From: a virus
Reading direction: 5' to 3' (one strand)
IMG/VR virus record: IMGVR_UViG_2919155634_000002
Span: 4,411 to 68,410 of that record
Length of the DNA stretch: 64,000 bases
In this document: piece by piece, positions 21,309 through 49,616 of the stretch
How the letters are laid out: each line of letters opens with the position of its first letter
How positions within the stretch are numbered: position 1 is the first letter of the stretch
The notes under the pieces: generated by a model
Told to the model about the DNA's origin: nothing
Seen by the model: the letters and a program-made list of their open reading frames with translations, nothing else
Databases searched by the model: none
Translations under genes and position numbers: made by a program

Positions 21309-21842
21309 TCCCGCAAGCGCGCTTTCATCGCCGCGCTGAGGGAAGGTGCGTCCAATCGGGACGCTGCCGTGGCCGCTGGCTACTCCGAGCGCACAGCGTC
21401 TGCGGCGGGCTCTCGGCTGGTCAAGGACAAGGACGTGGCGGCCGAACTGATGAAGCTGCGTGCCCTGGGGCTGATGCCTCCAGATGTTAAAGGCGATGTT
21501 AAAGCGGATGTTAAAGCCAGGCCCGCCGCCAAGGCTGCCAAAGAGGCTGAGCCGGGCCCGGAAGGGGCACCGGAATCCGAGGAGCAAGCAGAGCCGGAAC
21601 CTGCCGGCTTCGACCTGGCCCAGGCGCTGCTCCACCGTGATCCGAAGGATTTCCTCCTCTCTGTGATGAACGACATGGGCACGGAAGCGAAGCTTCGCGT
21701 AGACGCCGCCAAGGCCCTGATGCCATTCGTTCACCCGCGCAAAGGCGAGAGCGGCAAGAAGGACCAGGCCCAAGCCAACGCCGATAAGGCAGCTTCCGGC
21801 AAGTTCGGCACCCGCCGCGGCCCGCTGCAGTCGGTGAAATGA
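21297..21842 (+). CDS. terS: Terminase small subunit
   Basis: N-terminal HTH ([20 protein letters not shown]), [14 protein letters not shown]; directly upstream of terL. Confidence 0.88.
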
Positions 21843-22120
21843 TGGAATGGTCAACCGCCTGCCATGATTGGGAACAGCGCATCGTTGCCCGCCAGAGCCT
21901 GATTCCGTTTGAGCCGCTGTTCCCGACTGAGGCTGAGGAAGCCTTGGATGTGTTCGGGGCGTTGCGCATGGTGGACGCCACTGGCAGTCCGTTGATGTGC
22001 GAGACCGTGCGTGATTGGGTCAATCAGTTCGTGGCCGCGATCTTCGGGGCCTACGACTCAGATTCAGGCCGGCGCCTGGTCAGCGAGTTCATGCTGCTCA
22101 TCAGCAAAAAGAATTCATAA
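21839..22120 (+). pseudogene. terL: Terminase large subunit, 5' fragment (interrupted at Walker A by the satellite)
   Basis: Ends ...[11 protein letters not shown]-stop exactly at attL. Confidence 0.92.
22104..22113 (+). repeat. attL core (GCAAAAAGAA)
   Basis: One mismatch to 36241-36250; tandem GGGGGTAT arm-type repeats at 22253-22272 and inverted ATACCCCC at 22303-22310. Confidence 0.8.
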
Positions 22121-22348
22121 ATTAGTTCTGGAACGTTCCAGATAGAACCTAGAAGAAACCGCAATCGGTTTACAGCGTTGATTATGCTGAATATTTTCGA
22201 TAAATGGCGTTCTGCAAGGTGCTAGAGGGTTCGCGTAAAGCGTTTGATTTTTGGGGGTATAAGCGGGGGTATCAAATTCCCTGATTCGTGTTTGTAAACC
22301 AAATACCCCCAAATTTCCATCAACACCCGAATCTCCAAGGCTGCAGCG

Positions 22349-23536
22349 ATGAAATTGACAGACACGAAGCTACGCCACATTAGGCCCAACGGAAAGCGCC
22401 TCAAGCTCGCCGACGGGAGAGGCCTGTATCTACTCATTACTCCAAACGGGGGGCGCTACTGGCGCTGGAAATACCGCTACGAAGGTCGCGAAAAACTTAT
22501 GGCCCTGGGGGTCTATCCGGAGATCTCCCTCGCTGCAGCTCGTAACCTGCACAGAGACGCCAGACTGGTACTGGCAAATGGTTCAGACCCAGTTGCAGCA
22601 AGGCAAAGGGCACAGGAAAAGGTTAGTGCGTATGTAACGTTCGAGCAGGCAGCCAAGCTCTGGTTTGCTCATTGGGCGCCGCAGAAAAAAGGCGACTCCC
22701 CTAAGGCTGCGTGGGCACGATTGGAAAAGGACGTACTTCCGGAGATCGGACGAAAGCCTGTCGGGAACATCCCGCCATCCGTGTTTCGTGACCTGCTCAA
22801 GCGTATCGAGGATCGGGCTCCCACAATTTCGCGCGCGGTCTTCAGCTACTGTGGTCAGATAATGCGATATGCAGTTGCACACGACCTAGCTGATCGCAAT
22901 CCAGTAGCCGAATTGCAAAGCGGAGATTTTCTCCGGGAGCACAAGTCTCGGAACCATGCTCGCGTTGATGAGAGAAAACTCCCAGCCTTGCTGCATGCAA
23001 TAGAAGGATTTCCTAGCGAGGTGACCAGCCTGGCAATGCGGCTGTTATGTCTCACTTTTGTCAGGGTTGGGGAGCTGCTTGGCGCGACGTGGGAAGAGTT
23101 TGACCTAGTTGCCTGTAGATGGACCATACCCGCTGAACGGATGAAGATGGATTCAGAGCACATCGTGCCTCTGTCCAAACAAGCTATCGAGATTGTAGAA
23201 CGGCTCAAGCAAATCACCTATGGAGGGAATTATCTGTTCCCAGGTAGGGCAGGCCATGATACTACAATGAATAGAGCAACAATCTTGATGGCGTTACGAA
23301 GCATGGGCTATGCAAAAGTTATGACTTCTCACGGTTTTCGAGGCATTGCGTCAACAATACTGCACGAGCAAGGATATAATCACGAGCACATCGAAACTCA
23401 ACTTGCTCATCAGTCTAGAGGGAAGGTTAGTGCAGCTTACAATCATGCCCTGTATCTTACGCCGCGTGCGAAAATGATGCAGGATTGGTCTGATTTTATT
23501 GATGTTAAAAGGGCTAGCTATAAACATCCGATTTAA
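22349..23536 (+). CDS. int: P4-like tyrosine integrase with arm-binding domain
   Basis: KLADGRGLYL...WRWKYRY arm domain; FVRVGE, HGFR, LAH, AAY catalytic motifs intact. Confidence 0.95.
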   Translation: MKLTDTKLRHIRPNGKRLKLADGRGLYLLITPNGGRYWRWKYRYEGREKLMALGVYPEISLAAARNLHRDARLVLANGSDPVAARQRAQEKVSAYVTFEQAAKLWFAHWAPQKKGDSPKAAWARLEKDVLPEIGRKPVGNIPPSVFRDLLKRIEDRAPTISRAVFSYCGQIMRYAVAHDLADRNPVAELQSGDFLREHKSRNHARVDERKLPALLHAIEGFPSEVTSLAMRLLCLTFVRVGELLGATWEEFDLVACRWTIPAERMKMDSEHIVPLSKQAIEIVERLKQITYGGNYLFPGRAGHDTTMNRATILMALRSMGYAKVMTSHGFRGIASTILHEQGYNHEHIETQLAHQSRGKVSAAYNHALYLTPRAKMMQDWSDFIDVKRASYKHPI

Positions 23537-23558
23537 AAAGTTCTTTTGAAAAAATACA

Positions 23559-23582
23559 GCCCCGCACTGCGGGGTTTTTTTT
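23559..23582 (+). terminator. Intrinsic terminator after integrase
   Basis: ccccgc-act-gcgggg followed by T8. Confidence 0.75.
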
Positions 23583-23592
23583 GGAGATAAAT

Positions 23593-23775
23593 ATGGCGAC
23601 GCTTCTGAAATTGGAACAAGTCAAGCAGAAAACTGGATTAAGTAAAACTGCGATTTACACCTGTCCCGACTTCCCTCAGCCAGTCAAAATTGGCGCGCGT
23701 TCGGTGGCCTGGGTGGAGAACGAAGTTTCTGACTGGATAGATAGGAAAATTGCAGAGCGCGGGCGCAGTCAGTGA
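23593..23775 (+). CDS. alpA: AlpA family regulator / excisionase
   Basis: LLKLEQVKQKTGLSKTAIY...FPQPVKIGARSVAWVENEVSDWI. Confidence 0.92.
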   Translation: MATLLKLEQVKQKTGLSKTAIYTCPDFPQPVKIGARSVAWVENEVSDWIDRKIAERGRSQ

Positions 23776-24083
23776 TGCGCCCCCTAGATACCAAGGATGC
23801 TCGCCTGCCCAGTTGTGCCCTTTCTCTTCAGTCGTGCCCATGCCCCAAGGTGGGCATTACTGAGGGCACGAGGGCACGACTGAGGAAAAACAGTTCAGGA
23901 GTGGCATTGCGCCATCACGATAAACTGCTGATAATCGGTCTTGCAAGCAATCGTCTCGAAGGGTATCGTTTGCCCGTCGCTGCAAATTCAGCGACCGGGT
24001 TTGGCGACTCGAAGACTACACGGCGCACAGGCGCCCCCATCACGATTGCTGGCGCTTTTTTTGTGCCCGCACATCCTGTTTAT

Positions 24084-24161
24084 GGTGGCTGTGCGCGGGA
24101 GACCCTAGGGTCTGCCGGGTTCCGTGTGTCCCGGTTCGCCAACCTGCGTACAGCTGCCACC
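24084..24161 (+). ncRNA. c4/CI-type antisense immunity RNA
   Basis: Outer stem ggtggctgtgcgcggg/cctgcgtacagctgccacc, inner hairpins agaccctagggtct and ccggg...cccgg; loop TCGCCAA complementary to flanking TTGGCGA within GTTTGGCGA at 23999-24007 and 24169-24177. Confidence 0.8.
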
Positions 24162-24218
24162 CCTATTCGTTTGGCGACGAACCGTGGCAGCTCCTATCTA
24201 ACACACGGAGCTACACCA

Positions 24219-24377
24219 ATGACCGCCCTCATTCCGTCCAAAATCCGCGCCCTTGCTCATCGCCGTATGGCTCTGAGTGCTCTTCGCGCACAATCCTCGC
24301 TCTCTGTTCGCCTGAAACGCTACAACCACCACATGGACCAAGCCCGCGCCCTGGAAGCCCAAGGGGGTGTGCAATGA
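24219..24377 (+). CDS. Icd/Ash-like small protein
   Basis: GGAG RBS; RRMALSALRAQSSLSVRLKRYNHHM; directly downstream of the c4-like RNA as in P1/P4-type modules. Confidence 0.65.
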   Translation: MTALIPSKIRALAHRRMALSALRAQSSLSVRLKRYNHHMDQARALEAQGGVQ

Positions 24378-24649
24378 ACTGCTTTCCAAGTATTTCGCCC
24401 CTTGAAGGCAAAGTTCTGCCCGAGGCATTGATCGATGCTCGCGACATGTGCTCGATGAACTTCGCTCGGGAAGAGTTCCACAAGCTCTACGCGCTGCTCT
24501 ATCCCATGTGTTCAAACCATGAGGAAGGGCCAATGTGCGACATTGCACGGCACCTGGAGCAGGTCATCTGCTTTAGTGGCAACGTCCTTTGGAAGCACCG
24601 CCACCTGGGCGCCTCGTATGGGGAGATCAAATCCGGAGGTGCCCAATGA
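24374..24649 (+). CDS. Hypothetical satellite protein
   Basis: ATGA overlaps on both sides. Confidence 0.65.
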   Translation: MNCFPSISPLEGKVLPEALIDARDMCSMNFAREEFHKLYALLYPMCSNHEEGPMCDIARHLEQVICFSGNVLWKHRHLGASYGEIKSGGAQ

Positions 24650-24948
24650 GCTTGATAAGTTGGAACGGCCTTCTTCCCAAGCATGAGGCAATCAAAGAAA
24701 TGTCGGTCGATGAGCTTCGTAAAACTGCCGACTCAACGAAGGAATACGCCTGCACACTGGCGCACGGTATATCTGGCATAGGCAATTTGCTTGCGTGTAC
24801 TGCCTCGAATGGCGAAACCGGTTTGAGCGATCAAGCCGTGACTAGCGTCGGCTGGATGCTTGAAAGCATGGGTACGCTCATCAGCAACTTAGTCGATACA
24901 CAAGCAGCTGCCGAGTACCACCTGCAAGTCAAACTCCCGAGGGCTTGA
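24646..24948 (+). CDS. Hypothetical satellite protein
   Basis: GGAGG RBS, ATGA overlap. Confidence 0.65.
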   Translation: MSLISWNGLLPKHEAIKEMSVDELRKTADSTKEYACTLAHGISGIGNLLACTASNGETGLSDQAVTSVGWMLESMGTLISNLVDTQAAAEYHLQVKLPRA

Positions 24949-24950
24949 TT

Positions 24951-25358
24951 ATGAGAATCCAAAACGGTGCATTTGCGCCGACGGGATCGGTTTGCCTGGA
25001 TAAACTGCTCAACCGGTTAGAAAAAGTTAAGTCCGCTGGCGCCGACAAGTGGAAAGCCTGCTGCCCTGCACACGACGACAAACATCCGAGCTTGGCAATT
25101 AGCGAAACTTCGGAGGGCGTCGTCTTACTCAAGTGCTGGGCCGGTTGTACAACTAAAGAGATTGTCTCGGTAATTGGCCTGGAGTTGCGGGACTTATTCC
25201 CCGGCGACAAACAACCTCGGCGCGGCCCAAGTAAGGCTGCAGTTGAACATGAGCGCATGGTTTATCGGATCGGCCAATCACTCCAGCAGCAAGGTAGTTT
25301 GGCCGGTGACGACCTAGTGCGCTTCAACCTCGCCAAGCAGCGCCTGGGGGTCAAATGA
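24951..25358 (+). CDS. Primase-type Zn-binding domain protein
   Basis: CCPAHDDKHPSL...LKCWAGC (CHC2-like). Confidence 0.8.
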   Translation: MRIQNGAFAPTGSVCLDKLLNRLEKVKSAGADKWKACCPAHDDKHPSLAISETSEGVVLLKCWAGCTTKEIVSVIGLELRDLFPGDKQPRRGPSKAAVEHERMVYRIGQSLQQQGSLAGDDLVRFNLAKQRLGVK

Positions 25359-26629
25359 CGACTGACCGATTTGCCGGAGAATGGACCGAACCACTCAGCC
25401 CAATCAATCGAGAAAACGTCACGCCCTTGTGGCGCGTCAATGCAGTTAAGGCGTCGACAATCAGAGCCGTTCCCATCCGTTGGCTGTGGCCTGGCTGGCT
25501 GGCCAAAGGAAAGCTGCACATCCTCGCCGGTGCTGGCGGCACTGGGAAAACCACGCTGCTGATTGGCCTGATCGCCACCATCACTACTGGCGGCCGCTGG
25601 CCTGATGGCAGCCATTGCAGTGAGCCAGGCAATGCACTGATCTGGTCGAGCGAAGATGATCCTGCCGATACCTTGATCCCCCGCTTGACCGCGGCTGGCG
25701 CTGACATGAGCCGGGTGTACATCATCCAAGGGCGGACTAACGCCCAGGGCGACACAGACCCATTCGACCCGGCCAACGACATTGGTCTGCTGCGAAAAAC
25801 AGCCAGCGACATTGGCGGCGTCTCACTGCTGATGCTCGATCCCATCGTCAGCGCTGTGAAGGGTGACATGCACAAGGCCAATGACGTGCGCCGGGCGCTG
25901 CAGGCCGTGGTGGATTTTGCGGAGCAGAACCTTTGCGCAGTAGTGGGAATTTCCCACTTCGCCAAAGGCGGCGCAGGGTCATCACCTGCTGATCGGGTCA
26001 TTGGGTCGCAGGCGTTCTCCGCATTGGCACGCACGGTGATGGTGGCTGCTAAGCAGGAAGACTCGGCCACCCGCGTACTGGCGCGTGCGAAGTCCAACAT
26101 CGGTACTGATGAAGGGGGCGTTTCCTACACCATCGAGCCACTCACCATTGAGGGAGACATTGAGGCTACCCGTGTTCTGTGGGGGGATTTGATTCAGGGT
26201 TCAGCCCGCGAAATCCTGGGTGATTTGGAAGGCCAAGAAGATGGGATGCGGCTGGATGACTCGGATGATCCGGCTGAAGCCTTGCGTAGGATTCTCAGCA
26301 AGGGCCCGCTGCCAGGCAAAGAAGCAAAGTGTCTGATGGTCGGCAATGGCTACACCCAAAAACAGATTCGTACAGCACGAGAGCGTCTTGCGATCACTAC
26401 CGCTCGATCCGGCTTTGGAGGGGACACGGTTGTCACATGGTCCCTCCCTCAGGCCGAAGGTGACTATGCCCCATTCCCCTCAGTCGAGCCCTCTGATCCT
26501 CAGTCGTGCCCACCCTTGGGCATGGGCACGACTGGAGACATAGGGCACGACTGGACGAAATACCTCAGTGGGCCACTGCCAGACGGAACGTCACTCCCAT
26601 CACTGGATGATGATGCGGAGGACCTGTGA
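25355..26629 (+). CDS. AAA (RepA/RecA-like) replicative helicase
   Basis: Walker A GAGGTGKT, SEDD, Walker B LLMLDPI, SHFAK. Confidence 0.88.
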   Translation: MTTDRFAGEWTEPLSPINRENVTPLWRVNAVKASTIRAVPIRWLWPGWLAKGKLHILAGAGGTGKTTLLIGLIATITTGGRWPDGSHCSEPGNALIWSSEDDPADTLIPRLTAAGADMSRVYIIQGRTNAQGDTDPFDPANDIGLLRKTASDIGGVSLLMLDPIVSAVKGDMHKANDVRRALQAVVDFAEQNLCAVVGISHFAKGGAGSSPADRVIGSQAFSALARTVMVAAKQEDSATRVLARAKSNIGTDEGGVSYTIEPLTIEGDIEATRVLWGDLIQGSAREILGDLEGQEDGMRLDDSDDPAEALRRILSKGPLPGKEAKCLMVGNGYTQKQIRTARERLAITTARSGFGGDTVVTWSLPQAEGDYAPFPSVEPSDPQSCPPLGMGTTGDIGHDWTKYLSGPLPDGTSLPSLDDDAEDL

Positions 26630-26922
26630 TGGCCGCGCTCGACTACCTACTGGAACGTGGATTTACCGCCAAGAAGCAAGGTATGCGGGTACGGATTTCG
26701 CCCGCGTCAAAGCTGACCGACGACGTGCGCAAGTATGTCAAAGCGCACCGGCTGGCGCTGCTAGCCGAGCTGGCGGCGAACGACGGCCTGGAGCGCCGCT
26801 GCAACTGGTCGGTGCTGGTGCCCGGGTGCCGGCCATTCACCATGATCAGCGAGCCGATCACCCGCGACGAAGCGCTGGCCGATGTTCGTGTGCGGTGGCC
26901 AGGTGCGGAGGTGGGGCCATAA
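26626..26922 (+). CDS. Small protein: TubC_N-like N-terminus fused to a WxVxVPGxxPFxM domain
   Basis: C-terminal ~40 aa align by eye with helper ORF 14350-14481. Confidence 0.7.
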   Translation: MMAALDYLLERGFTAKKQGMRVRISPASKLTDDVRKYVKAHRLALLAELAANDGLERRCNWSVLVPGCRPFTMISEPITRDEALADVRVRWPGAEVGP

Positions 26923-26981
26923 AGGCCAACCGCGAGCCAAATTACCGTCGGTAAACCGACACAGATAGCAGGCGGTCACGG

Positions 26982-27021
26982 CTCGGATTTGTTTCCGACC
27001 TGGCTCGGATTTATTTCCGAG
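26982..27021. repeat. Two helper-type iterons (TCGGA-N6-TCCGA) in the satellite
   Basis: CTCGGATTTGTTTCCGAC (26982-26999) and CTCGGATTTATTTCCGAG (27004-27021); 26999-27020 is the exact reverse complement of helper 13016-13037. Confidence 0.85.
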
Positions 27022-27157
27022 GGGGTGCTTTCCGGCAGAAAACCACACCTTGGCTTTCACAACGCAGAGGCGCCTTGATCCGAATCGGCTCATTTGGTCC
27101 GAGTCGGCTCATAGGGTCTCGTTCGGTGTAACGACACCCTCACATTGAGGAGCAAGC

Positions 27158-28447
27158 ATGACCACCAAGCACATCATCATCACTGACGCCGAGATCCGTA
27201 AGCAGGCCGGCCAGCCAGTGCGCCAGTTGCGTGACCCGCGTTACCCCGAACTGCGCTTTCGCTATTCGAGCGTGGATCGCACCCGGGGCGCCTGGCACGT
27301 TGTTGTCAGGGGCAAGTGGGGCAAGGCCGGCGATTTCCCCAGCCTGACCACCAAGGCCATGATAACTGCGCTGCCGGCCATCCTGGCCCGCCGTGCCGTA
27401 GACGCCGAGGCTACCTCGCTGACCAGCACCTGGAGTCGTACCGGTGAGCTGCTGGACTGGTACCTGGACCGCATGCTGCGCGACCGCAACTTGTCGGAGA
27501 AGCGCAAGGCCGGCGCGAAGTCGGCCATCACCTGCCACCTGACGCCCCGGCTGCATGACCTGCCGCTGGCTGATGTGAGCAAAGCCACGCTCGATCAACG
27601 CCTAATGTGGCCACTGCAGGAGCGCTACGCCTTATCGTTCGTGCGGCTGGTGTTCAACGTGCTGGCGGTGGCCGTGCGCAAGGCACACCGGCTTGGGATG
27701 ATCGAGCACAACCCCATGGGCTCGCTGCGCTTCGGGGACTTCGTGGCGGTACGGATCAAGCCTAAATCGTCACGGCTACGGGAGCGGGATTTACCCGATC
27801 TGCTGGCCAAGCTGGCGAGCTGGAGCGAGGCGCGGCCCGGTGACGCCCTGTTGGCGCTGATGATGCTTTGCCACGGCACCCGCCTGGGCGAGACGCGCAG
27901 TGCGCTGTGGCGCAATGTCGATCTGCAGGCCGGCCAGTGGTTCATACCCGCCGACGACACCAAGACCAAGCAGAACCACACCCTGCCGCTGACCCGCCAG
28001 GCCTGTGCACTGCTGAGCCGCTATCAGGCCCAGCAGATCGCCCAAGGCTACCAAGGTGCCTACCTGTTCCCATCCAGCCGGCGCGGGCCACTGGGTGCCA
28101 CGGCAGCCAGCCAAGTGTTTGCCGAATTGAGCGACCGGCAGTGGACCAGCCACGACGTGCGCAAGGTCGCCCGCACCTGCTGGATGGATCTGGGTGTTGA
28201 TTACCTGGTGGGCGAGATGCTGGTGAACCACGCCCTGCGCAACATGGACGCGACCTACATCCACACCACCGCCGAAGCCCTCAAGCGCCAAGCCCTGGAA
28301 CGCTGGCACGACCAGTTAGACCGACTCGGGTTGAACGCACTTACAGGCGAGACATACCCAAGACACGAAGTTTCGCAAAAACAGCCACAAGCCACAGACC
28401 ACGCGGCCTCTGGCGAAAACCCGGATGCATCACAGAGGAGCATGTAA
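27158..28447 (+). CDS. Second tyrosine recombinase, paralog of helper 15199-16497
   Basis: Shared LRDPRYP, HGTR(I/L)GETR, WFIPA, WTSHD(L/V)RKV, GEML(L/V)NH, TYIHT motifs. Confidence 0.88.
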   Translation: MTTKHIIITDAEIRKQAGQPVRQLRDPRYPELRFRYSSVDRTRGAWHVVVRGKWGKAGDFPSLTTKAMITALPAILARRAVDAEATSLTSTWSRTGELLDWYLDRMLRDRNLSEKRKAGAKSAITCHLTPRLHDLPLADVSKATLDQRLMWPLQERYALSFVRLVFNVLAVAVRKAHRLGMIEHNPMGSLRFGDFVAVRIKPKSSRLRERDLPDLLAKLASWSEARPGDALLALMMLCHGTRLGETRSALWRNVDLQAGQWFIPADDTKTKQNHTLPLTRQACALLSRYQAQQIAQGYQGAYLFPSSRRGPLGATAASQVFAELSDRQWTSHDVRKVARTCWMDLGVDYLVGEMLVNHALRNMDATYIHTTAEALKRQALERWHDQLDRLGLNALTGETYPRHEVSQKQPQATDHAASGENPDASQRSM

Positions 28448-28450
28448 ATC

Positions 28451-28681
28451 ATGGTCGACGTTGAGCAGGACGTTACCCAGCGCTTGGCCCAGGCCGGCGT
28501 CACACCGCTAATCGGTGGCCTGGTGCCAGAGCCAGCAACGGCGGACCTGCTGGGTTATGCACCCAGCTACTTGCGCCGCCTGGCTGCTGAGGGGCGTTCA
28601 CCCCTGCCGTTCGTGCGCCGGGGCAACCGCAGGTTCTACAAAATAGCCGACATAGTGCGCTTTGCGACGGATACCGACTGA
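28451..28681 (+). CDS. Small winged-HTH (excisionase/MerR-like) DNA-binding protein
   Basis: TADLLGYAPSYLRRL...RRGNRRFYKIADI. Confidence 0.75.
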   Translation: MVDVEQDVTQRLAQAGVTPLIGGLVPEPATADLLGYAPSYLRRLAAEGRSPLPFVRRGNRRFYKIADIVRFATDTD

Positions 28682-28762
28682 GGACGTCGAAGTTAACCGC
28701 TGACCGGGGGGTGCGTGCGCGCATAGGGTAGACGGCATCGTTTACACACCCCGGAGAACCCC

Positions 28763-29929
28763 ATGCCAGATCCCTATCAGCAGGACATGACCCAGCTGAA
28801 TCAAACGCTGCAGAACATCGGTACGCAGATCGCTGACTTCAAATCCTCCTCTGCAGAGAAACAAACCGAGTTCGGCGCCCGCCTTCAAGAAATCGAGCAG
28901 AAGATGGTGAATGTCAGCGCCCGTCGAGGCGCGAATGATGACACCGCCGACTCCAATGTCGTGACCGCCCAGGTAGTGGCCGCTGATGGTATCGCCGGTT
29001 TCCGCAACGGGATGAAGTCCACCGGCCAGATCAGTTGCAAGGTCGGCGTGCGTGCTGCGATCACCAATCCCAATAAAGGCGTCACTGGCTCGACCAGCTA
29101 CCCAACTGCCCCGCAACGTGATGGCGCCGGCATCCGCGGCATTCCGCAGCCACGGCTGAGCTTGCTGGATGTGCTGCCGATCGTGCCGGTCACCAGCGCT
29201 ACTTACGAGTTCGTTCGCCTCGACGGCTACATCAACGGCGCGGCCTACCAGAAAGAAGAAGGTGAGCAGAAGGCCGAAGGGTCGATGCCGACCAAGATGG
29301 AGCGAGCGGAGATTGCCACCATCGCCACCTGGATTCCGGCGAGCCTCCAGGTGTTGCAGGACAGTGACCAGCTTGAGGGGCAGATCAACACGCTGATGAG
29401 CGTGGGGGTTCGCCAGAAGCTGGAGGCCGAGCTCATCAACGGCGAAGGTGGACCAGGTGAGATCCTCGGATTCAAGAAGCAGGCCACCGCCGCCGGCATC
29501 ACCACCGGCAAGCCAGCTGATCGCATCGGCGCTGCCCTCACTGACCTCAAGGCCGAAGGTTGGAACCCGAACGTTATCGTGATGAACCCGCGTGACTGGT
29601 TCGCCATCGAGAGCGAGCGCGCCGAGGGCGGCGACGGTCAGTACGTTATCGGCACACCACGCGATCCAGCACCACCAAGCCTGTGGGGCACACCCGTGGT
29701 GGTCACCAACGGTATGCCACAAGGCGAAGCGTTGATCCTGGACACCTCTGTGGCAGCCCTGCTGGATCGGCAGGAGGTGACCGTGGAAGCAAGCCGTCAC
29801 GATGGCGACAACTTCAAACGCAACCTGGTCACCATTCTGGCGGAGCTGCGTGCCGGCCTGGCCGTCTTCGCGCCAAGCGCTACCCGCCTGGTAACGCTCG
29901 GTACCGTCCAGGCCAAGTCGTCCAAGTAA
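28763..29929 (+). CDS. Satellite-encoded HK97-family major capsid protein
   Basis: N-terminal coiled-coil delta domain; RLSLLDVLP, IATWIPAS, IVMNPRDW, LWGTPVVVT, FKRNLVTILAELR motifs. Confidence 0.92.
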   Translation: MPDPYQQDMTQLNQTLQNIGTQIADFKSSSAEKQTEFGARLQEIEQKMVNVSARRGANDDTADSNVVTAQVVAADGIAGFRNGMKSTGQISCKVGVRAAITNPNKGVTGSTSYPTAPQRDGAGIRGIPQPRLSLLDVLPIVPVTSATYEFVRLDGYINGAAYQKEEGEQKAEGSMPTKMERAEIATIATWIPASLQVLQDSDQLEGQINTLMSVGVRQKLEAELINGEGGPGEILGFKKQATAAGITTGKPADRIGAALTDLKAEGWNPNVIVMNPRDWFAIESERAEGGDGQYVIGTPRDPAPPSLWGTPVVVTNGMPQGEALILDTSVAALLDRQEVTVEASRHDGDNFKRNLVTILAELRAGLAVFAPSATRLVTLGTVQAKSSK

Positions 29930-30059: not shown

Positions 30060-30257
30060 ATGCGCCATACCCACTTACCCAAGCCTGTTCAACGAGCCCT
30101 CAACCAAATCGCCCACAGTCGCGCCCTGTTGCGCCAGATGGAGGAGCGTGAGCGATTGAGCAAAGAGATCGATCGGCTGCTGGCCAGCGGCCTGAGCGCA
30201 GCAGAAGCGCTCGAGCAGATCCGATCGGCGCCGCCGTACGAAGCCCCGGACTACTGA
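30060..30257 (+). CDS. Small helical protein immediately upstream of the satellite cos
   Basis: GGAG RBS; MRHTHLPKPVQRALNQIAH... Confidence 0.7.
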   Translation: MRHTHLPKPVQRALNQIAHSRALLRQMEERERLSKEIDRLLASGLSAAEALEQIRSAPPYEAPDY

Positions 30258-30480
30258 GGGGCGGGTCGAAAGTCTAGGAGGTCCGCTGCCCTAGACCGCT
30301 CCCGACCCCACGTACAGATTTTTTTCCTTTAACAAAAAAATGTTAAAGCGACTTTAACACCCATGCCGAACGTGCATGAGCCTGGAAGCCAGTGATTCAG
30401 CGGCTTTGAGCCAAATTGAGACAGCCTGGCGGATGTTAAAAGTGTTAACCCTTTAACACCTAAAAGTTAATGCTTTAACA
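30257..30480 (+). other. Putative satellite cos site with TGTTAAA/TTTAACA repeats
   Basis: 37-bp identity to helper (30291-30327); six exact heptamers at 30328, 30341, 30353, 30434, 30452, 30474. Confidence 0.8.
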
Positions 30481-30578
30481 CCCTCTGGTAAGTGCAAAGA
30501 TCGCCAGCAGCCGGGTGTGTCTAGCTCGCCTGCCCTCGCTCTGTAATGACTAACTGCACAAATTTATGAGGTTATCCA

Positions 30579-30668
30579 ATGTTCAGTGCGATCACTTGCA
30601 CCCTCGTCGCCGAGATCTGCAAGGCCGGCTTCTGTTGTGAAACCTCCAATAATCGGAGTTGCCGATGA
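30579..30668 (+). CDS. Possible 29-aa Cys-rich leader peptide
   Basis: GAGG RBS; MFSAITCTLVAEICKAGFCCETSNNRSCR; ATGA overlap with the first gpI-like gene. Confidence 0.35.
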   Translation: MFSAITCTLVAEICKAGFCCETSNNRSCR

Positions 30669-31255
30669 AACGAAAGATCAAGCTCTACGGCGTGCTGCGC
30701 CAGCGTTTCGGCCGCCAATACATCCTCGATGTGCACACCCCGCGGGATGCCATCCAAGCGCTCTGCGAAATGGTTCCAGGCTTCGAGAAGTTCCTGCTCA
30801 CTGGGGAGGAGCGCGGCTTGGTGTTCACCGTCTTTTCCGGTAACCGGAATCTCTGCGCCGACGATCTGGATCTCAAGGGCGACGATGTGGGTGATATCCG
30901 AATAGCGCCGATCATCCAGGGCAGTAAGCAGGCAGGCGTGTTTCAGACGATCCTGGGCGCGGTTTTGATCGTCGTGGGCATCATGTACGACTGGACAGGA
31001 TCGACCTCGACCATGGGCGTGGCGATGATCGCCGGCGGTGCTGCTATGGCCGCCTCGGGCGTTGTACAGATGCTTTCACCTACGCCTAACACGGGCAGCC
31101 TGGACCGCAACGAGGACGGCAACAACCCCAGTTACGGATTCGGCGGTGCGGTGACCACCATCGCTCAGGGCAACCCCTATCCAGTGCTGTACGGCGAGCG
31201 AGAGATCGGTGGCGCCGTCGAATCTGGCGGCATCTACACACAAGATCAGCTGTAG
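30665..31255 (+). CDS. Tail assembly protein I (lambda gpI-like), copy A
   Basis: IKLYGVLRQRFGR ubiquitin-like N-terminus, IRIAPIIQGSK, Gly-rich hydrophobic stretch, SYGFGG...GNPYPVLYGEREIGG. Confidence 0.88.
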   Translation: MKRKIKLYGVLRQRFGRQYILDVHTPRDAIQALCEMVPGFEKFLLTGEERGLVFTVFSGNRNLCADDLDLKGDDVGDIRIAPIIQGSKQAGVFQTILGAVLIVVGIMYDWTGSTSTMGVAMIAGGAAMAASGVVQMLSPTPNTGSLDRNEDGNNPSYGFGGAVTTIAQGNPYPVLYGEREIGGAVESGGIYTQDQL

Positions 31256-31266
31256 AGGAGGCATAC

Positions 31267-31629
31267 ATGACCACCGAAATTTCGAAGTCATCCTTTCAGC
31301 AGCGATTCGCTCAAGCATGCAAATCGGAGCATTTCACTCTGCATGAGGGCGGCCCCTCTTATTCGCTTTGGAACGTCCAGCACGTAAAGGACGGTCGCCA
31401 CGCACTCCTTGACGGCGTTTTTTTCACAGAGGAGGAGGCGCAGATCTCCGCCGATCTTCTCCGAGGCACCATGCGTGGGGCGCGAGCATACAAGGTCATC
31501 TATGCCCCTACATGGAGGCCCGACCCGGCCCGAGAGGCCGTTATACGCCTTGAGGCGTTCCAGTGCCGCGAGATGCTTGCACGGCGCCTGGGCGTACAAC
31601 ATATAACCCGCGAACAGGAGAATTCCTGA
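31267..31629 (+). CDS. Hypothetical protein between the two gpI-like genes
   Basis: GAGGAGG RBS; TGATG coupling to the next gene. Confidence 0.7.
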   Translation: MTTEISKSSFQQRFAQACKSEHFTLHEGGPSYSLWNVQHVKDGRHALLDGVFFTEEEAQISADLLRGTMRGARAYKVIYAPTWRPDPAREAVIRLEAFQCREMLARRLGVQHITREQENS

Positions 31630-32243
31630 TGGCTGCAGTCGTTCGAAGCAATCCGACCCTGACCACCGTCTACCTGTCCGGCCCCCTGATCCGGAAGTTT
31701 TTCCGCAAGAAGGATTACCTGCTGGACAGCCAGAATACCTGGGAGGTGTTTCGAGCCTTGAAGGCAACGCTGGCAGGATTCGAGCAAGAGATTAAGCGCC
31801 TCGAGGCCATGGGCATGAGGTTTGCGATATTCCGCAATCGAAAGAATGTGGGAGAAGACGACTTCGAGCGCGGCGGCGCCACTGAGGTACGTATTGTTCC
31901 TGTGATTGGAGGCAGCAAGCGCGGTGGGGGCTTGCAAACAGTCCTAGGGGTAGTGCTCATCGCTCTCGCGTACTTCAACCCGTTTGGGTACTTCTCAGGG
32001 CCGGCTGTTAGCGCTATGTACGCCGCAGGCGCGGCGAACGTAGCTGGCGGCGTGATGCAGATGCTAAGCCCGCAGGCACGCGGCTTGTCGCAGAGCGGTG
32101 CACCGGAGAACCTGCCGTCCTACGCCTTCGGTAGCGCCAAGAACACCACCGCCAGCGGTAACCCCGTCCCGATCTGCATAGGTGACCGCCGCTGGGGCGG
32201 AGCTATCATCTCGGCATCGATCGAGGCGCAGGACAAGGCTTAA
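31629..32243 (+). CDS. Tail assembly protein I (lambda gpI-like), copy B
   Basis: TVYLSGPLIRKF, VRIVPVIGGSK, SYAFGSAKNT...GNPVPICIGDRRWGG. Confidence 0.88.
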   Translation: MAAVVRSNPTLTTVYLSGPLIRKFFRKKDYLLDSQNTWEVFRALKATLAGFEQEIKRLEAMGMRFAIFRNRKNVGEDDFERGGATEVRIVPVIGGSKRGGGLQTVLGVVLIALAYFNPFGYFSGPAVSAMYAAGAANVAGGVMQMLSPQARGLSQSGAPENLPSYAFGSAKNTTASGNPVPICIGDRRWGGAIISASIEAQDKA

Positions 32244-32669
32244 AGTGAGCCAGGGTCACTTTGAATACTCCAATTCCGGTATGTGGGGGTGTCCTCAGTA
32301 TTGAGGATACCCCGTTTTGCACTCCCGGCCTCATCTTACCAATCCCGGAGCATAGGAGTGTCTAGGAAAAAAAGAGCATGACTTACACAGAAAACATTGG
32401 CCAGAAAATCTCAACGATTGAATGGCGTCGAGTGGAGTTCATTATGAGTAACAAAGTCATCCGCCGGCGTCAGAGCAACAGGGCTGGACCTGCTGGATTG
32501 GCTTTATGGCGCGATAACGGCATCGGTGCCGTAACGGTCATTGGTGTACTCCATTTACGCTTGTCTACTGTAATAGGTGAGTGTCAGCTGAGATTGGATT
32601 GACCTCGTTTGGCCGAGCCGAAATAGAGGAAAGCGCTAGCGTAGGCGGTGATGCCTCACCGCCTTCAAG

Positions 32670-34298
32670 TCAAAGATTATATCGCCATGATTTACTCAAT
32701 CCTTTAATTCCCGGAAGATTTAGAAAAGGTGAGGGCGTACTGTCGTATATTACGTCATGCTTACCTATGCGCTTGGTTGTGTGCACAAGAACGCAGAGAT
32801 TTTTGGCTCTTGTTATGCCAACATAGTGTAGATTTAGATCTTGCTCCCAACTTTTATAGATCTTTTTGCTAGTGATGGGGTCGTTGCTTGGGAAGTTCAT
32901 TACATACTCGATAAGGTCGAGGTGGAGAACAATTTCAAATTCTAAACCCTTGGATTTATGGAGCGTCATGCATTGTACTTCGTTATGGCTTGCAGGCAGA
33001 TACTGCTGTAATTGCTCTTTATCTAGAATAACCTTTTTTAGTGCGGCAATCTCTTCAGGTTTAGCTTCTAAGCCAAGCAGTCTTTGTGAGGCAGTGACCA
33101 AGCTCGATTCTAAAAGGCAATCATCAATGGCTCGAAATTTTTTAATGATAGATCTTCTGTCGATTAATTGTCGTTTTTTCAAGTCACCATGATCGGGAAG
33201 TATTTCTAAGACCTCATCAACGGTGTGTGCAGGACTGTAGCGGTAAGTTAGGATCTGCCCCCAGAGCTCTGTCGTACGTGTCCCTAGTTCCTCAATAGCA
33301 TTATCAGTATGGATTCGCCTTGGGATAGTCAGCTTCTCAGCAAGATGCTTGAGTGTTGCGTTGCCCCTGGCCAGGATAGCGATTTGGGATGGTGGGATCG
33401 TGCTCCATTTTGCTAGCAGAGCTTCTATTAGCCTGTTGAGTTTGAACGCTCCTTCGCGTTGATCGCCTTCCATTTCACAGTGCCATACTCGAATGTCATT
33501 GTTTTCGAGGAGGATAAATCGATCATTGAAAAGTCTGTTTGCATAATTTGAAATGGACGGGTGACATCTATGGTTTCGAGCAATCGTTCGATGCGTGAAT
33601 TTTGGATTTCTAATCAGATCTTTGAGGTGTTCAGGGCTTGATCCTCTCCACCCAAATATCGATTGCTGCAGGTCACCGACTGCTATGCCGGTTATTCCCA
33701 GTGATTCCATGATCAAAAAAAGCGAGTGCTGTTCGTAAGAAGTGTCTTGATATTCATCCATATACACTGAGGTGTATCTGGCTTTGAGGAATTTTGAACA
33801 AGCGGCTGATTGCTTAATGATATAGTTAGCTAGGCTTGCTATTGCTGGAAAGTATAACGTTCCAGCTGCAAGGAGCTCTAAGAGTACATCGAGGTTCTGT
33901 CCCTCAGTGTAGCTCTCTTCTTCTATGAACTGGCAGGCAAGTTTTTTCTCAGCCTCAGTCAGGTCGGCAGGATATTTAGGAGTTAGGTCTACTGCTGAAC
34001 TAGCGAATACATGCCTAATGAACGGATGGATGATTTCACTCAGACAAAATGAATCTATCGTCCCAAAAAAGCTAGACTTTACATCAGTTGAATTTTTTTT
34101 GCATCTGTCAGCTAGTTCTCTGCTTGCCTTTCTGGTGAAGGTTATGGCTATGACACCCTGATGCTTCTTAAGAGTGTCTAGCTCAATTCTGATCTTCTCA
34201 CTCATAACTGCTGTTTTACCACTTCCAGGGCACGCAGTTATGATCAAGGAGCCTTGCGGCTTGATCGCATCTAACTGTTCGTTAGTGAACTCTATCAT
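32670..34298 (-). CDS. gajB: UvrD/Rep-like helicase, Gabija GajB
   Basis: ACPGSGKT, ITFTRKA, DEYQD, VGDLQQSIFGWRG, TLHKSKGLEF, YVGITRAK; coupled to the OLD nuclease. Confidence 0.83.
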   Translation of the reverse strand: MIEFTNEQLDAIKPQGSLIITACPGSGKTAVMSEKIRIELDTLKKHQGVIAITFTRKASRELADRCKKNSTDVKSSFFGTIDSFCLSEIIHPFIRHVFASSAVDLTPKYPADLTEAEKKLACQFIEEESYTEGQNLDVLLELLAAGTLYFPAIASLANYIIKQSAACSKFLKARYTSVYMDEYQDTSYEQHSLFLIMESLGITGIAVGDLQQSIFGWRGSSPEHLKDLIRNPKFTHRTIARNHRCHPSISNYANRLFNDRFILLENNDIRVWHCEMEGDQREGAFKLNRLIEALLAKWSTIPPSQIAILARGNATLKHLAEKLTIPRRIHTDNAIEELGTRTTELWGQILTYRYSPAHTVDEVLEILPDHGDLKKRQLIDRRSIIKKFRAIDDCLLESSLVTASQRLLGLEAKPEEIAALKKVILDKEQLQQYLPASHNEVQCMTLHKSKGLEFEIVLHLDLIEYVMNFPSNDPITSKKIYKSWEQDLNLHYVGITRAKNLCVLVHTTKRIGKHDVIYDSTPSPFLNLPGIKGLSKSWRYNL

Positions 34299-36007
34299 AC
34301 ACTACCCTCGGCTACTTCGCGGCTATGGATCAGCGGTTGAGCCAAGAAGCCGCCACCAATTTTACCTAGAGCCTGACTATGCTTGGCTAAAAAAGAGCGC
34401 ATGCGTATGGCTTTGCTGTTTTGTAGGTAGGTAATCGCTTCAGCTATTGTTGTCTTATTGCTAAAGATTAGGAGCTCAGGACTTAATTCGTCGCCCATAT
34501 CATTTTCGAGATCGATCTTAGATAAATACACGCCCTTAGGATTTAGGATATCACAAGCAGCCTTCCAATAACCGTCTCTATGAACGGTGCTATGATCAGA
34601 GTTTTCAGGAAGATGTGGTACAGGCGGCAAATTAACCAGATTGCGTCCTCTATTTATGCCTGCGAGTTGTTTGTATTTAACATTTTTAAGTTCAATGGAT
34701 GATACGTCGTTGTCTGTCTTGGCGATCCAGGATATTTCCATGGCATCTAAGATTTTTGTGTAAACTGAAAACTGTACACCGTCAACGCTAAGAATTGATA
34801 TGTTGTAATAGTCTAAATCTATTCCAAGTTGTTTGGATAACTCGTTATAGAACAAAACTTCTGATGGTCCTTCAACCAGTAGCACGCATTTGGCAAAGAA
34901 AGCCTCTGCAGGTAGGACGCTCATTCGATAGCCTAAGTTGTCCCAGTGCTCGGAGATACATTCTGAACAGCCTTGGCTTGCCGCGTAACTTCCGTGGTTG
35001 GACTTTTTGATGTGTACCAAGTCAGCGGGAGTAAAACGCGCGGTTATTTGGGGCGAGTGTGTGGTAATGATGGTTTGCCCGCTAAGATCCTCAATTAGAT
35101 AGTTTGCTAATCTACGTTGCTGGTGGGGGTGCAGGTGAGCTTCCGGTTCTTCGATGCAGTAAAAAACAACTTCACTCGCCGGATCGTGCTCGTACTGGCT
35201 ACGAGCCTTCCATAGTGCCATCAAAATCTGATTATTGCGACCATCCCCACCAAGTGAAATCTTGGCCCCTGCCGTGCTTGCGCTGAGCTTCAAGTTGTCA
35301 ATAAATTGCTGTGTTTGTATTGCACCCGAATCTAGGAATACAGAGTACCCGGTTAGGTCGTTGGAAAGCTTGCTGAGCTCTGTGTTTACTGCTGTTGTTG
35401 CATTTGCAACATAGTTTAGCTGGCGGACTTGCTCATTGATGATATTTAGATTGGTTTCGATTTTTTCGAGCTGTTTTTGATCGAATTCACCTTGTTCTGG
35501 TGTCCGCAATTCTTGCGAGAGTTTCAATAGATGTTTTTTTTCAAGTGATACAAATTTTTCTAGATCACGACTCGATTTTACATACTTAAGATTTAAATAC
35601 TTGAGATAGAACCTGCTGGATATTTCATTTAGTTGGTCGGCTTTAGGGCCGCATAAGATCCTATAGCTCAAGTCCTTTCTGAGGGCTTCATATCTAAGTA
35701 TGCATTTGCCATCCCCCGATACGTTGCCGCGGAGGATTGAAAGTACTGCATCCTGGCTTACCTCTCCGAAGTGAATGGTAATGCACAGGGCCTCACTTTG
35801 CTGGCCATCATTTGAAATATGAAAGTCGGACTCTTTTGGTTCGATTTCACTTTCGGATAAAGACTTATCTAGGAGCAACCTTAGCGCATAGATCAAGTTT
35901 GTCTTGCCGCAGTCGTTGCTTCCAATGACTAAGGTTTTTTGGTTGAAATTGACTATGGCATTCTTGTAATTTTTGTATCCGCTGACTTCTAGCTTGTCGA
36001 TTTTCAT
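34295..36007 (-). CDS. gajA: OLD-family ABC-ATPase/TOPRIM nuclease, Gabija GajA
   Basis: IGSNDCGKT, EEPEAHLHPHQQ, VEGPSE, KTDND; AT-rich. Confidence 0.85.
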   Translation of the reverse strand: MKIDKLEVSGYKNYKNAIVNFNQKTLVIGSNDCGKTNLIYALRLLLDKSLSESEIEPKESDFHISNDGQQSEALCITIHFGEVSQDAVLSILRGNVSGDGKCILRYEALRKDLSYRILCGPKADQLNEISSRFYLKYLNLKYVKSSRDLEKFVSLEKKHLLKLSQELRTPEQGEFDQKQLEKIETNLNIINEQVRQLNYVANATTAVNTELSKLSNDLTGYSVFLDSGAIQTQQFIDNLKLSASTAGAKISLGGDGRNNQILMALWKARSQYEHDPASEVVFYCIEEPEAHLHPHQQRRLANYLIEDLSGQTIITTHSPQITARFTPADLVHIKKSNHGSYAASQGCSECISEHWDNLGYRMSVLPAEAFFAKCVLLVEGPSEVLFYNELSKQLGIDLDYYNISILSVDGVQFSVYTKILDAMEISWIAKTDNDVSSIELKNVKYKQLAGINRGRNLVNLPPVPHLPENSDHSTVHRDGYWKAACDILNPKGVYLSKIDLENDMGDELSPELLIFSNKTTIAEAITYLQNSKAIRMRSFLAKHSQALGKIGGGFLAQPLIHSREVAEGSV

Positions 36008-36240
36008 CCGAAATACGTTCCATGTTTGTGTTTGATGCTCAGGGTGTCAGGTAGTCAACCAGGCGCGGAGGCCGGTTGCCTGTGTCCTGCCACGGAATCA
36101 CGCCGCAGCTCGTACACGTAGCATCGCCGTAGTGGCAGTTTGCTGCAAGCTGATCTAAGGGGTATCTCTGGGGGTACGCCGTTGGATACCACTCCCCGTA
36201 GCGTCCATTTCCCTTGCTTCTCTGGGGTCGATTGACATTT

Positions 36241-36250
36241 GCAAGAAGAA
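36241..36250 (+). repeat. attR core (GCAAGAAGAA)
   Basis: Junction to terL codons K-K-N-G-K-S-T; tandem (A/G)GGGGTA arm-type repeats at 36158-36177. Confidence 0.8.
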
Positions 36251-37664
36251 CGGCAAGTCGACCATCGCCGCCGGCATCATGCTTACCGCACTGATCCTTA
36301 ACTGGCGAGCGTCGGGTGAGTTCATCATTCTCGCACCGACCAAGGAAATCGCGGACAACTCCTACCTCCCAATCAGGGACATGGTGGGTGCTGACGAAGA
36401 GCTCAAGGCCTTGCTCAAGGTGCAGGATCACCTGCGCACCGTGACGCACCGTCAGACTAACGCCACCCTCAAGGTGGTTGCAGCGGACAGCGAGACGGTG
36501 TCGGGCAAGAAAGCCATCGGCGTGTTCGTCGACGAGCTGTGGGTGTTCGGCAAGCGGGCCAACGCCGAGGCTATGCTGCGCGAGGCCACTGGTGGCCTGG
36601 CCTCTCGGCCAGAGGGATTCATCATCTGGGCCACCACCCAGTCCGATGCACCGCCGGCCGGCGTCTTCCGGCAGAAGCTGTTGTATGCCCGCAAGGTGCG
36701 CGACGGCGAGATCGTCGACAAGTCGTTCCTGCCGGTGCTGTATGAGTTTCCCAAGGCGATGCTCGACGCCGGTGCACACCGGGACGCCTCGAACGCCTAC
36801 ATCACCAACCCAAATCTCGGGCTGTCGGTCGACGAACCTTTCATCGAGCGTGGTTACGCACAGGCCCAGCTGGACGGCGAGGAGTCGTTTCGCGGCTTCC
36901 TTGCCAAGCACCTAAACGTCGAGATCGGCTTGGCGCTGCTTTCGGATCGCTGGGCGGGTGCTGATTTTTGGGAGACACAGACCTCCGAGCTATGCCGCAC
37001 GCTGGAAGACCTGATCGACCGCTGCGAAGTGATCGACATCGGTGTCGATGGCGGGGGGCTGGATGACCTGCTTGGCTTTGCAGCACTCGGCCGAGAGCAG
37101 GGAACACGGCGCTGGCTGACCTGGACTCATGCCTGGGCCCATCCATCAGTACTGGAGCGGCGTAAAGCCGAAGCGCCGCGCATCCGCGACTTCGCTAAGG
37201 ATGGACACCTGACCTTGGTTGAACGCATCGGCGACGACATTGAGGCGGTGGCACAACTGGTGGCGCAGGTCGAGCAGGCCGGCCTGCTAGATAAGGTCGG
37301 GCTGGACCCGGCCGGCGTCGGCGCGATCCTCGATGCGCTGGAGGCTGTTGGAATTCCGCGCGAAAAGATTGATGGCATTTCCCAAGGCTGGCGCCTGGGC
37401 GGAGCCATCAAGACTGCCGAGCGCAAGCTGGCCGAGGGCACGCTGCTGCACGGGGGGCAGCCGATGATGGCCTGGTGCTGCGGTAACGCCAAGGTCGAGC
37501 CGCGCGGCAACTCGATCCTTATCACCAAGCAAGCCAGCGGCTCGGCCAAGATTGACCCGCTGATGGCGCTGTTCAACGCCGTGACGCTGATGGCCCTCAA
37601 TCCAGAGGGGCAGGGCGGCATGGAAAACTTCATGGCCGGCATTCGGGATCCACTGATCGCATGA
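36243..37664 (+). pseudogene. terL: Terminase large subunit, 3' fragment
   Basis: KKNGKSTIAAGIM..., Walker B VFVDELW, nuclease IGVDGGGLDD, KIDPLMA. Confidence 0.92.
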
Positions 37665-49614: not shown

Positions 49615-49616
49615 CT

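Follow-up and report, generated by a model that had tools for sequence, protein, structure and literature searches.

A phage-satellite-like element interrupts the P-loop codons of the large terminase gene in a lambdoid prophage

The stretch of DNA analyzed here, called the window, covers bases 4411 to 68410 (64,000 nucleotides) of the 76,297-bp IMG/VR provirus IMGVR_UViG_2919155634_000002. Within it, the large terminase gene (terL) of a prophage is split by a 14,137-bp insert that carries an integrase and replication genes and that we regard as a phage satellite; the surrounding prophage is hereafter called the helper. Domains of the open reading frames (ORFs) were assigned with Pfam and PHROGs profiles and defense genes with PADLOC, while terminators were called by a consensus scan only. 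The helper is a lambdoid prophage, HK97-like and of the cos type, and is complete: its record is rated 100% complete by CheckV, has a 414-amino-acid (aa) integrase-like ORF at the far left, and encodes a CI-like repressor, an antirepressor, an O-like initiator, an HNH endonuclease, a small terminase subunit (terS), a portal, a ClpP-type protease, a capsid protein, a tape measure, and a J-like fiber. The HNH gene (20508 to 21143, plus strand; Pfam), a putative cos region placed by its position (about 21200 to 21300, plus strand), and terS (21297 to 21842, plus strand; Pfam) follow one another in the order seen in the phages Alize and PseuP_224.

Next to terS, an ORF at 21839 to 22120 (plus strand) encodes a 93-aa peptide ending in LLISKKNS before its stop codon. 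The terL 5′ fragment proper (21839 to 22113, plus strand) provides 91 helper codons, which align to the N termini of intact TerL proteins and are followed by two satellite codons and the stop at 22118 to 22120. The terL frame picks up again at 36243 with KKNGKST (KKNGKSTIAAGIML) and continues to 37664. There, the 3′ part (36251 to 37664, plus strand) runs from the GKST of the P-loop through the nuclease domain, matches Pfam TerL_ATPase from profile position 30 as well as TerL_nuclease, and is 63 to 69% identical to Pseudomonas phage TerLs. This split had been proposed in an initial annotation of the DNA, and its coordinates agree with the ORF list, the translations, and the alignment to intact TerLs. 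The arithmetic given there for joining 21839 to 22113 with 36251 to 37664 (275 + 1414 = 1689 nt, with SKKNGKST restored) is likewise correct, and the fused product amounts to 562 codons plus a stop.

To locate the break within the protein, we relied on alignment of the rejoined sequence. The 562-aa TerL aligns without gaps over the junction with its counterparts in the Pseudomonas phages Alize (559 aa) and PseuP_224 (565 aa), the junction reading LLISKKNGKSTIAAGIM in the rejoined TerL versus MVSKKNGKSTIAAGIM in an intact phage TerL. In HK97 TerL (PDB 6Z6D), ARKNGKT pairs with SKKNGKS of the rejoined protein, and the break falls between SKKN and GKST. This alignment, together with the start of the TerL_ATPase match at profile position 30, puts the break inside the P-loop, or Walker A motif. 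We take the SKKNGKST stretch to be the catalytic P-loop, in keeping with what is established for ASCE terminases. The P-loop codons form the most conserved DNA stretch of terL, with about 46 nt that hardly vary even among phages with TerLs only 63% identical. This conservation accounts for the choice of target, since a single attB thereby serves many helpers.

The attachment sites could be delimited by comparison of the window with five other attL junctions, which defined AAGAAGAA as the 8-bp shared core. This core encodes Lys-Lys-Asn of the Walker A loop, and in all five of the other attLs it is followed by satellite sequence and an early stop. In the window, the attR core (36243 to 36250, plus strand) is AAGAAGAA, whereas the attL core (22106 to 22113, plus strand) reads AAAAAGAA and differs by one synonymous G>A substitution at 22108, both codons specifying Lys. 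The repeat reported initially was thus placed at the right sites; its core is now refined to these 8 bp, with one base differing at attL. Outside the cores, a P′ arm (22253 to 22272, plus strand) consists of doubled GGGGGTAT half-sites with a 12-bp period, centered about 153 bp past the attL core, and an inverted arm half-site lies at 22304 to 22310. The P arm (36158 to 36177, plus strand) consists of doubled AGGGGTAT/GGGGGTAC half-sites with the same period, centered about 79 bp ahead of the attR core. Within the insert, doubled GGGGGTAY half-sites are confined to its two termini, so the GGGGGTA repeats that had been noticed at both ends are real and prove to be doubled, with an additional inverted half-site. 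The doubled GGGGGTAY pattern was also considered as a marker for the family of elements and was dropped as too general, since a genome scan found it to be common to a broad P4-like integrase radiation.

The integrase gene, int1 (22349 to 23536, plus strand), lies just inside attL in the same orientation as terL and encodes a P4-type tyrosine recombinase, Int1, with the Pfam domains Arm-DNA-bind_3, Phage_int_M, and Phage_integrase. It is followed by a gene for an AlpA-family regulator or excision factor (23581 to 23775, plus strand; Pfam Phage_AlpA, E value of 1.3e-15). Both are full-length ORFs carrying the expected domains, in line with the earlier description of an intact integrase and AlpA. 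A strong hairpin with a T-run (23558 to 23576, plus strand) was found between int1 and alpA. No strong terminator was detected by the scan between the terL stub and int1, where only weak matches occur (22173 to 22189 and 22264 to 22283).

To examine whether the junction recurs, occupancy was surveyed in the assembled Logan contigs of eight sequencing runs (X1, X2, X3, X4, X5, X6, X9, and X11) over window positions 21000 to 38500. In X1, the probable source run of the window, attL lies within a contig of 9073 bp and attR within another of 26,528 bp, and an occupied attL is present in X2, X3, X4, X5, X6, X9, and X11. The order terS, terL stub of 91 to 96 aa, Int, AlpA recurs with the same terL junction in independent contigs, namely L086/L087 (Int 90% identical to Int1), L088 to L090 (74%), and Burkholderia ubonensis L214 (58%), where the stub ends in LLISKKN. 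Altogether, the same junction is present in at least 10 independent assemblies or runs, and the arrangement is therefore neither chance nor a chimera.

The unoccupied site was also observed. Contigs skipping exactly 14,137 bp are present in metagenome X2 at a depth of 29, similar to that of the occupied form, and in the tobacco metagenome X11 at a depth of 550 versus 12.5 for the occupied form; cultured relatives among the Pseudomonas phages carry an intact terL. The X2 and X11 contigs indicate that both states exist at precisely this position in near-identical helpers. The search for empty versus occupied sites suggested in the initial annotation has therefore been carried out, and contig families, Logan runs, and cultured phages together reveal both forms at the exact site. 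A further contig with an uninterrupted P-loop, from the isolate run X9 (5.5x vs ~180x), was not counted as evidence; its flanks, compared over 30-letter contig ends, are about 73 to 80% like the window, and this low-depth contig may be another phage.

A FastTree phylogeny of 119 integrases, the only tree built, places Int1 within a clade of 22 sequences with 100% support. Every member of this clade whose context was examined belongs to an element located within or next to the late genes of a prophage. The terL P-loop site is used in the window, in L086 to L090, and in L214. In a Pseudomonas metagenome-assembled genome (MAG; L091, GCA_022869205.1, 9700 to 20320), a sibling satellite whose Int is 61% identical has inserted where the major tail gene has its ribosome-binding site (core GACATTTGGAGAA) and provides an equivalent ribosome-binding site; terL is intact there, and the element carries a captured 1150-aa tape-measure homolog and a capsid homolog. 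An Achromobacter provirus (L081/L212/L237; Int 54 to 59% identical) has a lambda gpA-type terL split after codon 6, with the core TCGTAGAAGACAA covering codons 2 to 6, and its element encodes a protein kinase as well as an unknown protein of 1094 aa. Besides these three mapped sites, a probable spot after a head-closure gene was noted for another member of the clade. The P′ arm is conserved in L086 to L091, L214, and L081, and the P-arm geometry is repeated at the attR of L091 and of the Achromobacter element. When Int1 was searched against one-genome-per-species contigs, the best match was 54% identical and none of the matches had terL fragments nearby; the close Int1 family surfaced only in a large protein collection and in sequencing runs.

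The nearest outgroup integrases (39 to 54% identity) belong to elements found some 200 bp past tRNA genes or elsewhere in the chromosome. For comparison, the tree included integrases of the type found in helper-embedded phage-inducible chromosomal islands (HE-PICIs), which came from Erwinia, Rahnella, Kluyvera, Xenorhabdus, and Arsenophonus and were recognized by the arm motif next to the gene rather than drawn from the list in PMC10111431. These HE-PICI-motif integrases are 25 to 30% identical to Int1 and form a separate group with 100% support. The tRNA-targeting integrases are closer to Int1 than is this motif-selected set in the FastTree phylogeny, which supports a second clade of late-gene-targeting integrases nested among tRNA-targeting ones. 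In a JGI metagenome contig (L213, 6280 to 6620), a P arm, a core-like stretch, and a P′ arm stand side by side in an attP-like arrangement between a full head/terminase module and int-alpA; L213 may represent a capsid-forming satellite with an integrase of the Int1 clade that was assembled as a circle. As for the host of the helper, the 63 to 69% TerL matches, the 61% Int1 relative from a Pseudomonas MAG, and the runs that carry the satellite, which include phyllosphere, tobacco, and plant metagenomes, suggest that it is probably a plant-associated Pseudomonas.

The remainder of the insert is organized like a phage satellite. Downstream of alpA, three small ORFs (23772 to 24948, plus strand) occupy the position of the “Bro/dynamic” zone of Gram-negative phage-inducible chromosomal islands (PICIs); they have no Pfam match and hit only PHROGs families of unknown function. 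They are followed by genes for a primase-like zinc-ribbon protein (24945 to 25358, plus strand; PHROGs DNA primase, E value of 1e-17) and an AAA_25 helicase (25355 to 26629, plus strand; Pfam AAA_25, E value of 5e-35), and then by a 98-aa ORF that precedes the iterons described below. Farther along lie genes for a second tyrosine recombinase (27158 to 28447, plus strand), a small HTH_17 protein (28451 to 28681, plus strand; Pfam E value of 1e-4, under the curated cutoff), and a lone HK97-fold capsid homolog (28763 to 29929, plus strand; Pfam Phage_capsid, E value of 2e-37), as well as two lambda gpI-like tail assembly genes (30659 to 31255 and within 31563 to 32243, plus strand; PHROGs phrog_32, E values of 5e-68 and 3e-60) separated by a 120-aa unknown ORF. 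The two gpI-like genes are divergent from each other and both full length. In runs X4 and X9, about 1.19 kb including the first gpI-like copy is replaced by about 415 other letters. No terS, terL, portal, or protease gene was found among the insert ORFs with Pfam and PHROGs. Phage satellites are generally recognized by integration and replication functions of their own, the lack of most virion and packaging genes, and a packaging signal of the helper; the insert fits this description, with Int, AlpA, the primase and helicase, structural genes limited to the capsid and gpI-like ones, and a near-copy of the helper's putative cos. Capsid-forming PICIs (cfPICIs) are defined by a full head module (capsid, protease, portal, connectors, and terS), and the insert has the capsid homolog alone.

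A 77-nt strongly palindromic element with CAGTCGTGCCC/GGGCACGACTG half-sites is present twice in the satellite, in inverted orientation, at 23809 to 23885 just past alpA and at 26478 to 26554 within the 3′ end of the helicase gene. Its predicted RNA fold has an energy of −53 kcal/mol (z score of −4.9), and in metagenome X2 a copy adjoins attR in place of the cargo. The palindrome could be an operator array, an origin, or an element resembling a miniature inverted-repeat transposable element (MITE).

The cargo slot next to attR (32265 to 36230, minus strand) holds a Gabija defense system. PADLOC identified GajA (34295 to 36007; E value of 2.7e-236) and GajB (32670 to 34298; E value of 2.8e-183), and the two genes overlap by 4 bp. 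Gabija is defined by a GajA (ATPase plus OLD-type TOPRIM) encoded next to a GajB (UvrD-like helicase), and the pair qualifies as such. The G+C content of the insert is 0.41 to 0.47 in this slot versus 0.57 to 0.66 over most of the rest. The Gabija slot is missing from every other run surveyed: X3 fuses 32264 directly to 36231, and X9 has 4381 different letters in its place. Since the contents differ between runs, Gabija appears to be swappable cargo beside attR.

Several features tie the satellite to the helper. A putative cos or packaging copy (30257 to 30500, plus strand), detected by blastn and direct reading, includes 37 bp that are identical to the helper (30291 to 30327 = 21241 to 21277) within similar flanks. 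The helper segment lies just upstream of terS and downstream of the HNH gene, and the satellite copy has the same orientation. In HK97-like phages with the gene order HNH-terS-terL, cos is located just upstream of terS, and it is from this position that 30257 to 30500 is proposed as a putative cos. Several GTTAA/TTTAACAC repeats are present at 30340 to 30485 in the cos-like region of the satellite, and in the helper (21100 to 21320) a TTTAACAC-type motif is found only around the start of terS. The extra TTTAACAC-type repeats may be TerS-binding sites that favor packaging of the satellite.

Two 19-bp iterons placed 22 bp apart (26980 to 27020, plus strand) match the origin iterons of the helper. 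The iteron pattern has five matches in the window versus 0.01 expected, and the remaining ones lie at 12972 to 13034 (minus strand), inside the helper O-like initiator gene (12616 to 13587; PHROGs). The satellite capsid homolog is 31% identical to the helper capsid (39974 to 41167; BLASTP E value of 4e-44). For gpI, no phrog_32 match was found among the helper tail-tip ORFs tested (region 48428 to 56673), and the helper has a tail tip built on a distal tail protein; the satellite gpI genes thus seem to have been acquired from helpers whose tip is of the lambda type, PseuP_224 being an example.

The second tyrosine recombinase is a paralog (about 48% aa identity) of the product of helper gene 15199 to 16497, a 430-aa tyrosine recombinase whose gene is flanked by the replication genes and the late region. 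In related Pseudomonas phages, homologs occupy the position directly preceding the Q antiterminator, and one of these phages, PseuP_224, has a canonical integrase as well, located at its end. Such homologs are widespread, being encoded by many phages of Pseudomonas and Vibrio. In the sibling L086/L087, whose Int1 is 90% identical, the gene corresponding to 27158 to 28447 is kept in the same place. We considered whether this recombinase could be the integrase of another element and rejected the idea, given its paralogy to the helper gene product and the failure to find any att site inside the insert. Elsewhere in the helper, the early-left region (403 to 3518, minus strand) contains two overlapping ORFs with DNA methyltransferase domains, one of the C-5 cytosine type (767 aa) and one of the N6/N4 type (365 aa).

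Taken together, these data make it likely that the insert is a PICI-like satellite that was integrated by its own Int1 into the Walker A core of the helper terL and whose excision is needed for packaging. With terL reduced to a 93-aa stub and a remainder without its P-loop, the prophage would make neither the packaging ATPase nor a cos cut. Because the P-loop is essential and no second terL was found in the parts of the provirus record examined, helper packaging would be conditional on satellite excision, as the initial annotation had proposed and as judged from the anatomy of the locus.

Upon induction, the helper would first leave the chromosome by means of its own integrase and replicate as a composite. 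Late transcription of the helper, possibly antiterminated, would then continue past terS and the terL stub to reach int1 and alpA, which have the same orientation, and Int and AlpA would cut the satellite out precisely, restoring terL. The circle could replicate with its own primase and helicase, perhaps aided by the helper O protein at the two borrowed iterons. Finally, TerS, TerL, and HNH of the helper would package the circle at its near-copy of the putative cos, so that satellite and helper would compete for terminase. The unexcised composite has two co-oriented putative cos sites 9 kb apart, and excision would therefore also be needed to obtain packageable units. A size of 14.1 kb implies that small capsids or multimers would be required; the capsid homolog may make capsids fitting 14 kb. 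Gabija would act as cargo protecting the lysogen.

We also lean, with some reserve, toward a broader evolutionary reading, in which helper embedding arose a second, independent time. A P4-type integrase clade of Pseudomonas, Burkholderia, and Achromobacter satellites, descended from tRNA-targeting ancestors, would have shifted repeatedly onto conserved or control-critical spots in late genes, and the satellite would license helper packaging while copying the helper's cos and iterons. As a licensing switch of this sort, it would hold back helper packaging until the satellite has been released as a replicon of its own and can compete.

Some observations weigh against excision-dependent packaging. 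No attP circle joint was detected among the assembled contigs of the eight runs, no excision product was seen for this strain, and in X1, the probable source run, the depth stays level over helper and satellite alike. The empty-site contigs of X2 and X11 are metagenomic and may represent naive phages rather than excision products. The roles proposed for the cos copy, the iterons, and the capsid homolog are read from position and homology. Moreover, the A/G heterology between attL and attR at 22108, if it falls near the edge of the overlap region, could lower excision, as could be the case in lambda-type systems; alternatively, the attB of the helper had AAA and the crossover occurs 3′ of the base, which would leave no heterology in the overlap.

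A competing view is that of an insertion locked in place, that is, a satellite or defense island that no longer excises efficiently, has destroyed terL, and has parked Gabija in a domesticated, nonproductive prophage. The core heterology at 22108 is the main support for such a state, with the missing circle junction and the flat depth in X1 pointing the same way. Nonetheless, we consider it unlikely. All of the satellite and helper genes examined are intact, full-length ORFs in a helper rated complete, and the arrangement is kept across lineages with Ints 58 to 90% identical, both Pseudomonas-like and Burkholderia, as expected of a maintained, transmissible state. As for the base itself, X2, X3, X4, X5, X9, and X11 have G, while A is found in X1 and X6; because X1 and X6 have it in common, the X6 copy being about 97% identical to the window, A is shared variation at the very least, and an assembly error is unlikely. 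Both alleles encode Lys, and a crossover 3′ of the base would remove the heterology from the overlap.

That the insert consists of two tandem or nested elements, each with its own integrase (Int1 and the recombinase at 27158 to 28447), appears very improbable. Two tyrosine recombinase genes are indeed present, and in X11 the right half of the satellite (26840 to 32313) is about 25x deeper than the left half (22168 to 26839), so the halves can occur apart; this imbalance suggests that the recombinase-capsid-cos-gpI block also travels with another, more abundant element. Yet the second recombinase has its paralog in the helper between the replication genes and the late region, the gap at 26922 to 27158 contains no terL-type core or GGGGGTA arm, the arms being confined to the outer ends, the empty-site contigs skip the entire 14,137 bp, and gene order is the same in sibling satellites. 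An assembly or binning chimera of a prophage and an unrelated island, which might be suspected because the record is a predicted provirus and the X1 contig graph breaks at the 37-bp repeat, can be practically dismissed given the identical junction in so many independent assemblies and the X1 contigs that span both ends.

With this element, helper-embedded satellites reach beyond the Enterobacteriaceae and beyond their defining integrase clade. This suggests convergent evolution toward a state in which a parasite makes the packaging enzyme of its host virus depend on its own excision. Helper-satellite composites can also score as single “complete” proviruses (76 kb here), and as a result catalogs, genome-size estimates, and defense censuses credit satellite cargo such as Gabija to the phage. 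The system is a possible test of timing control in Pseudomonas satellite-helper conflict, if the source strain is obtainable.

The initial annotation had assigned the insert to a known class of helper-embedded satellites, and this placement is correct, the concept having been published for the HE-PICIs of Enterobacteriaceae, in which the interrupted late gene becomes whole again only once the satellite has left, with induction data (Tran et al. 2023, PMC10111431). Upon HE-PICI induction, the composite excises and replicates before the satellite is excised (PMC10111431). The element in the window resembles HE-PICIs in being embedded within one of its helper's late genes, with terL split at 22113/36251 and int, alpA, and primase genes read along terL, and in having Int and AlpA, a replication zone, captured late genes, and doubled arms that flank the core. 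HE-PICIs and Gram-negative PICIs have four ordered zones, namely Int plus AlpA, Bro/dynamic, replication, and late; of these, Int plus AlpA, replication, and late genes (capsid and gpI) are present here in order, and the three ORFs in the Bro position have no recognizable domain. HE-PICIs use a single 11capE-related integrase clade (PMC10111431); in contrast, Int1 falls in a separate clade in the FastTree phylogeny, at 25 to 30% identity to the motif-selected set. In HE-PICIs, a doubled TGTATTGC motif is found on either side of the attP center, upstream at 81 bp and downstream at 132 bp (PMC10111431), whereas the GGGGGTAY arms here lie at about 79 and 153 bp; the upstream arm is thus at about 80 bp in both, an analogous architecture built on another sequence. 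The accessible portions of PMC10111431 give HE-PICI terL sites that include profile positions 132 and 245/246, and they give attL/attR sequences for A:Terminase_1:132 that read IIDEYHEH, which we take to be the Walker B region. Among the terL sites named in these portions, the P-loop does not appear. The hosts also differ, being Pseudomonas, Burkholderia, and Achromobacter here, and the word “Pseudomonas” is absent from the accessible text and supplementary files of PMC10111431. Finally, the satellite described here also carries mimics of the helper cos and origin. The principle is therefore already known (PMC10111431), and what is new is the integrase lineage, the host group, the P-loop site, and the cos and origin mimicry.

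Our literature search returned no report of helper embedding in Pseudomonas or at a P-loop. The wheat-phyllosphere Pseudomonas satellite “Kalvehoegda” is described without structural genes, and embedding in a prophage is not mentioned. With the P4/P2 pair, the element shares a P4-type integrase with an arm-binding N-terminal domain, the cos of its helper (putative here), and a size of about one-third or less of that of the helper; P4 differs in that it integrates at tRNA-Leu and not in its helper. Among the insert ORFs, no Pfam or PHROGs match to a P4-specific gene was obtained, Psu, Sid, Delta, and the alpha primase not having been queried by name. Cos-type PICIs, among them Staphylococcus aureus pathogenicity islands (SaPIs) such as SaPIbov5 with its Ccm protein, are about 14 kb long, have an int gene and a helper-type cos but no terminase of their own, and encode a capsid homolog that could redirect assembly to small capsids; they sit in the chromosome and are derepressed in trans. 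The satellite in the window matches SaPIbov5-type islands in size, int, cos-like site, lack of a terminase, and capsid homolog, but it is an island within the helper terL. Timed, precise excision that restores a split gene needed at one particular stage is also known from skin in sigK, SPbeta in spsM, and phi10403S in Listeria comK, the last as “active lysogeny.” In those systems a phage-like element controls a gene of its bacterial host, whereas here a satellite would control a gene of its phage.

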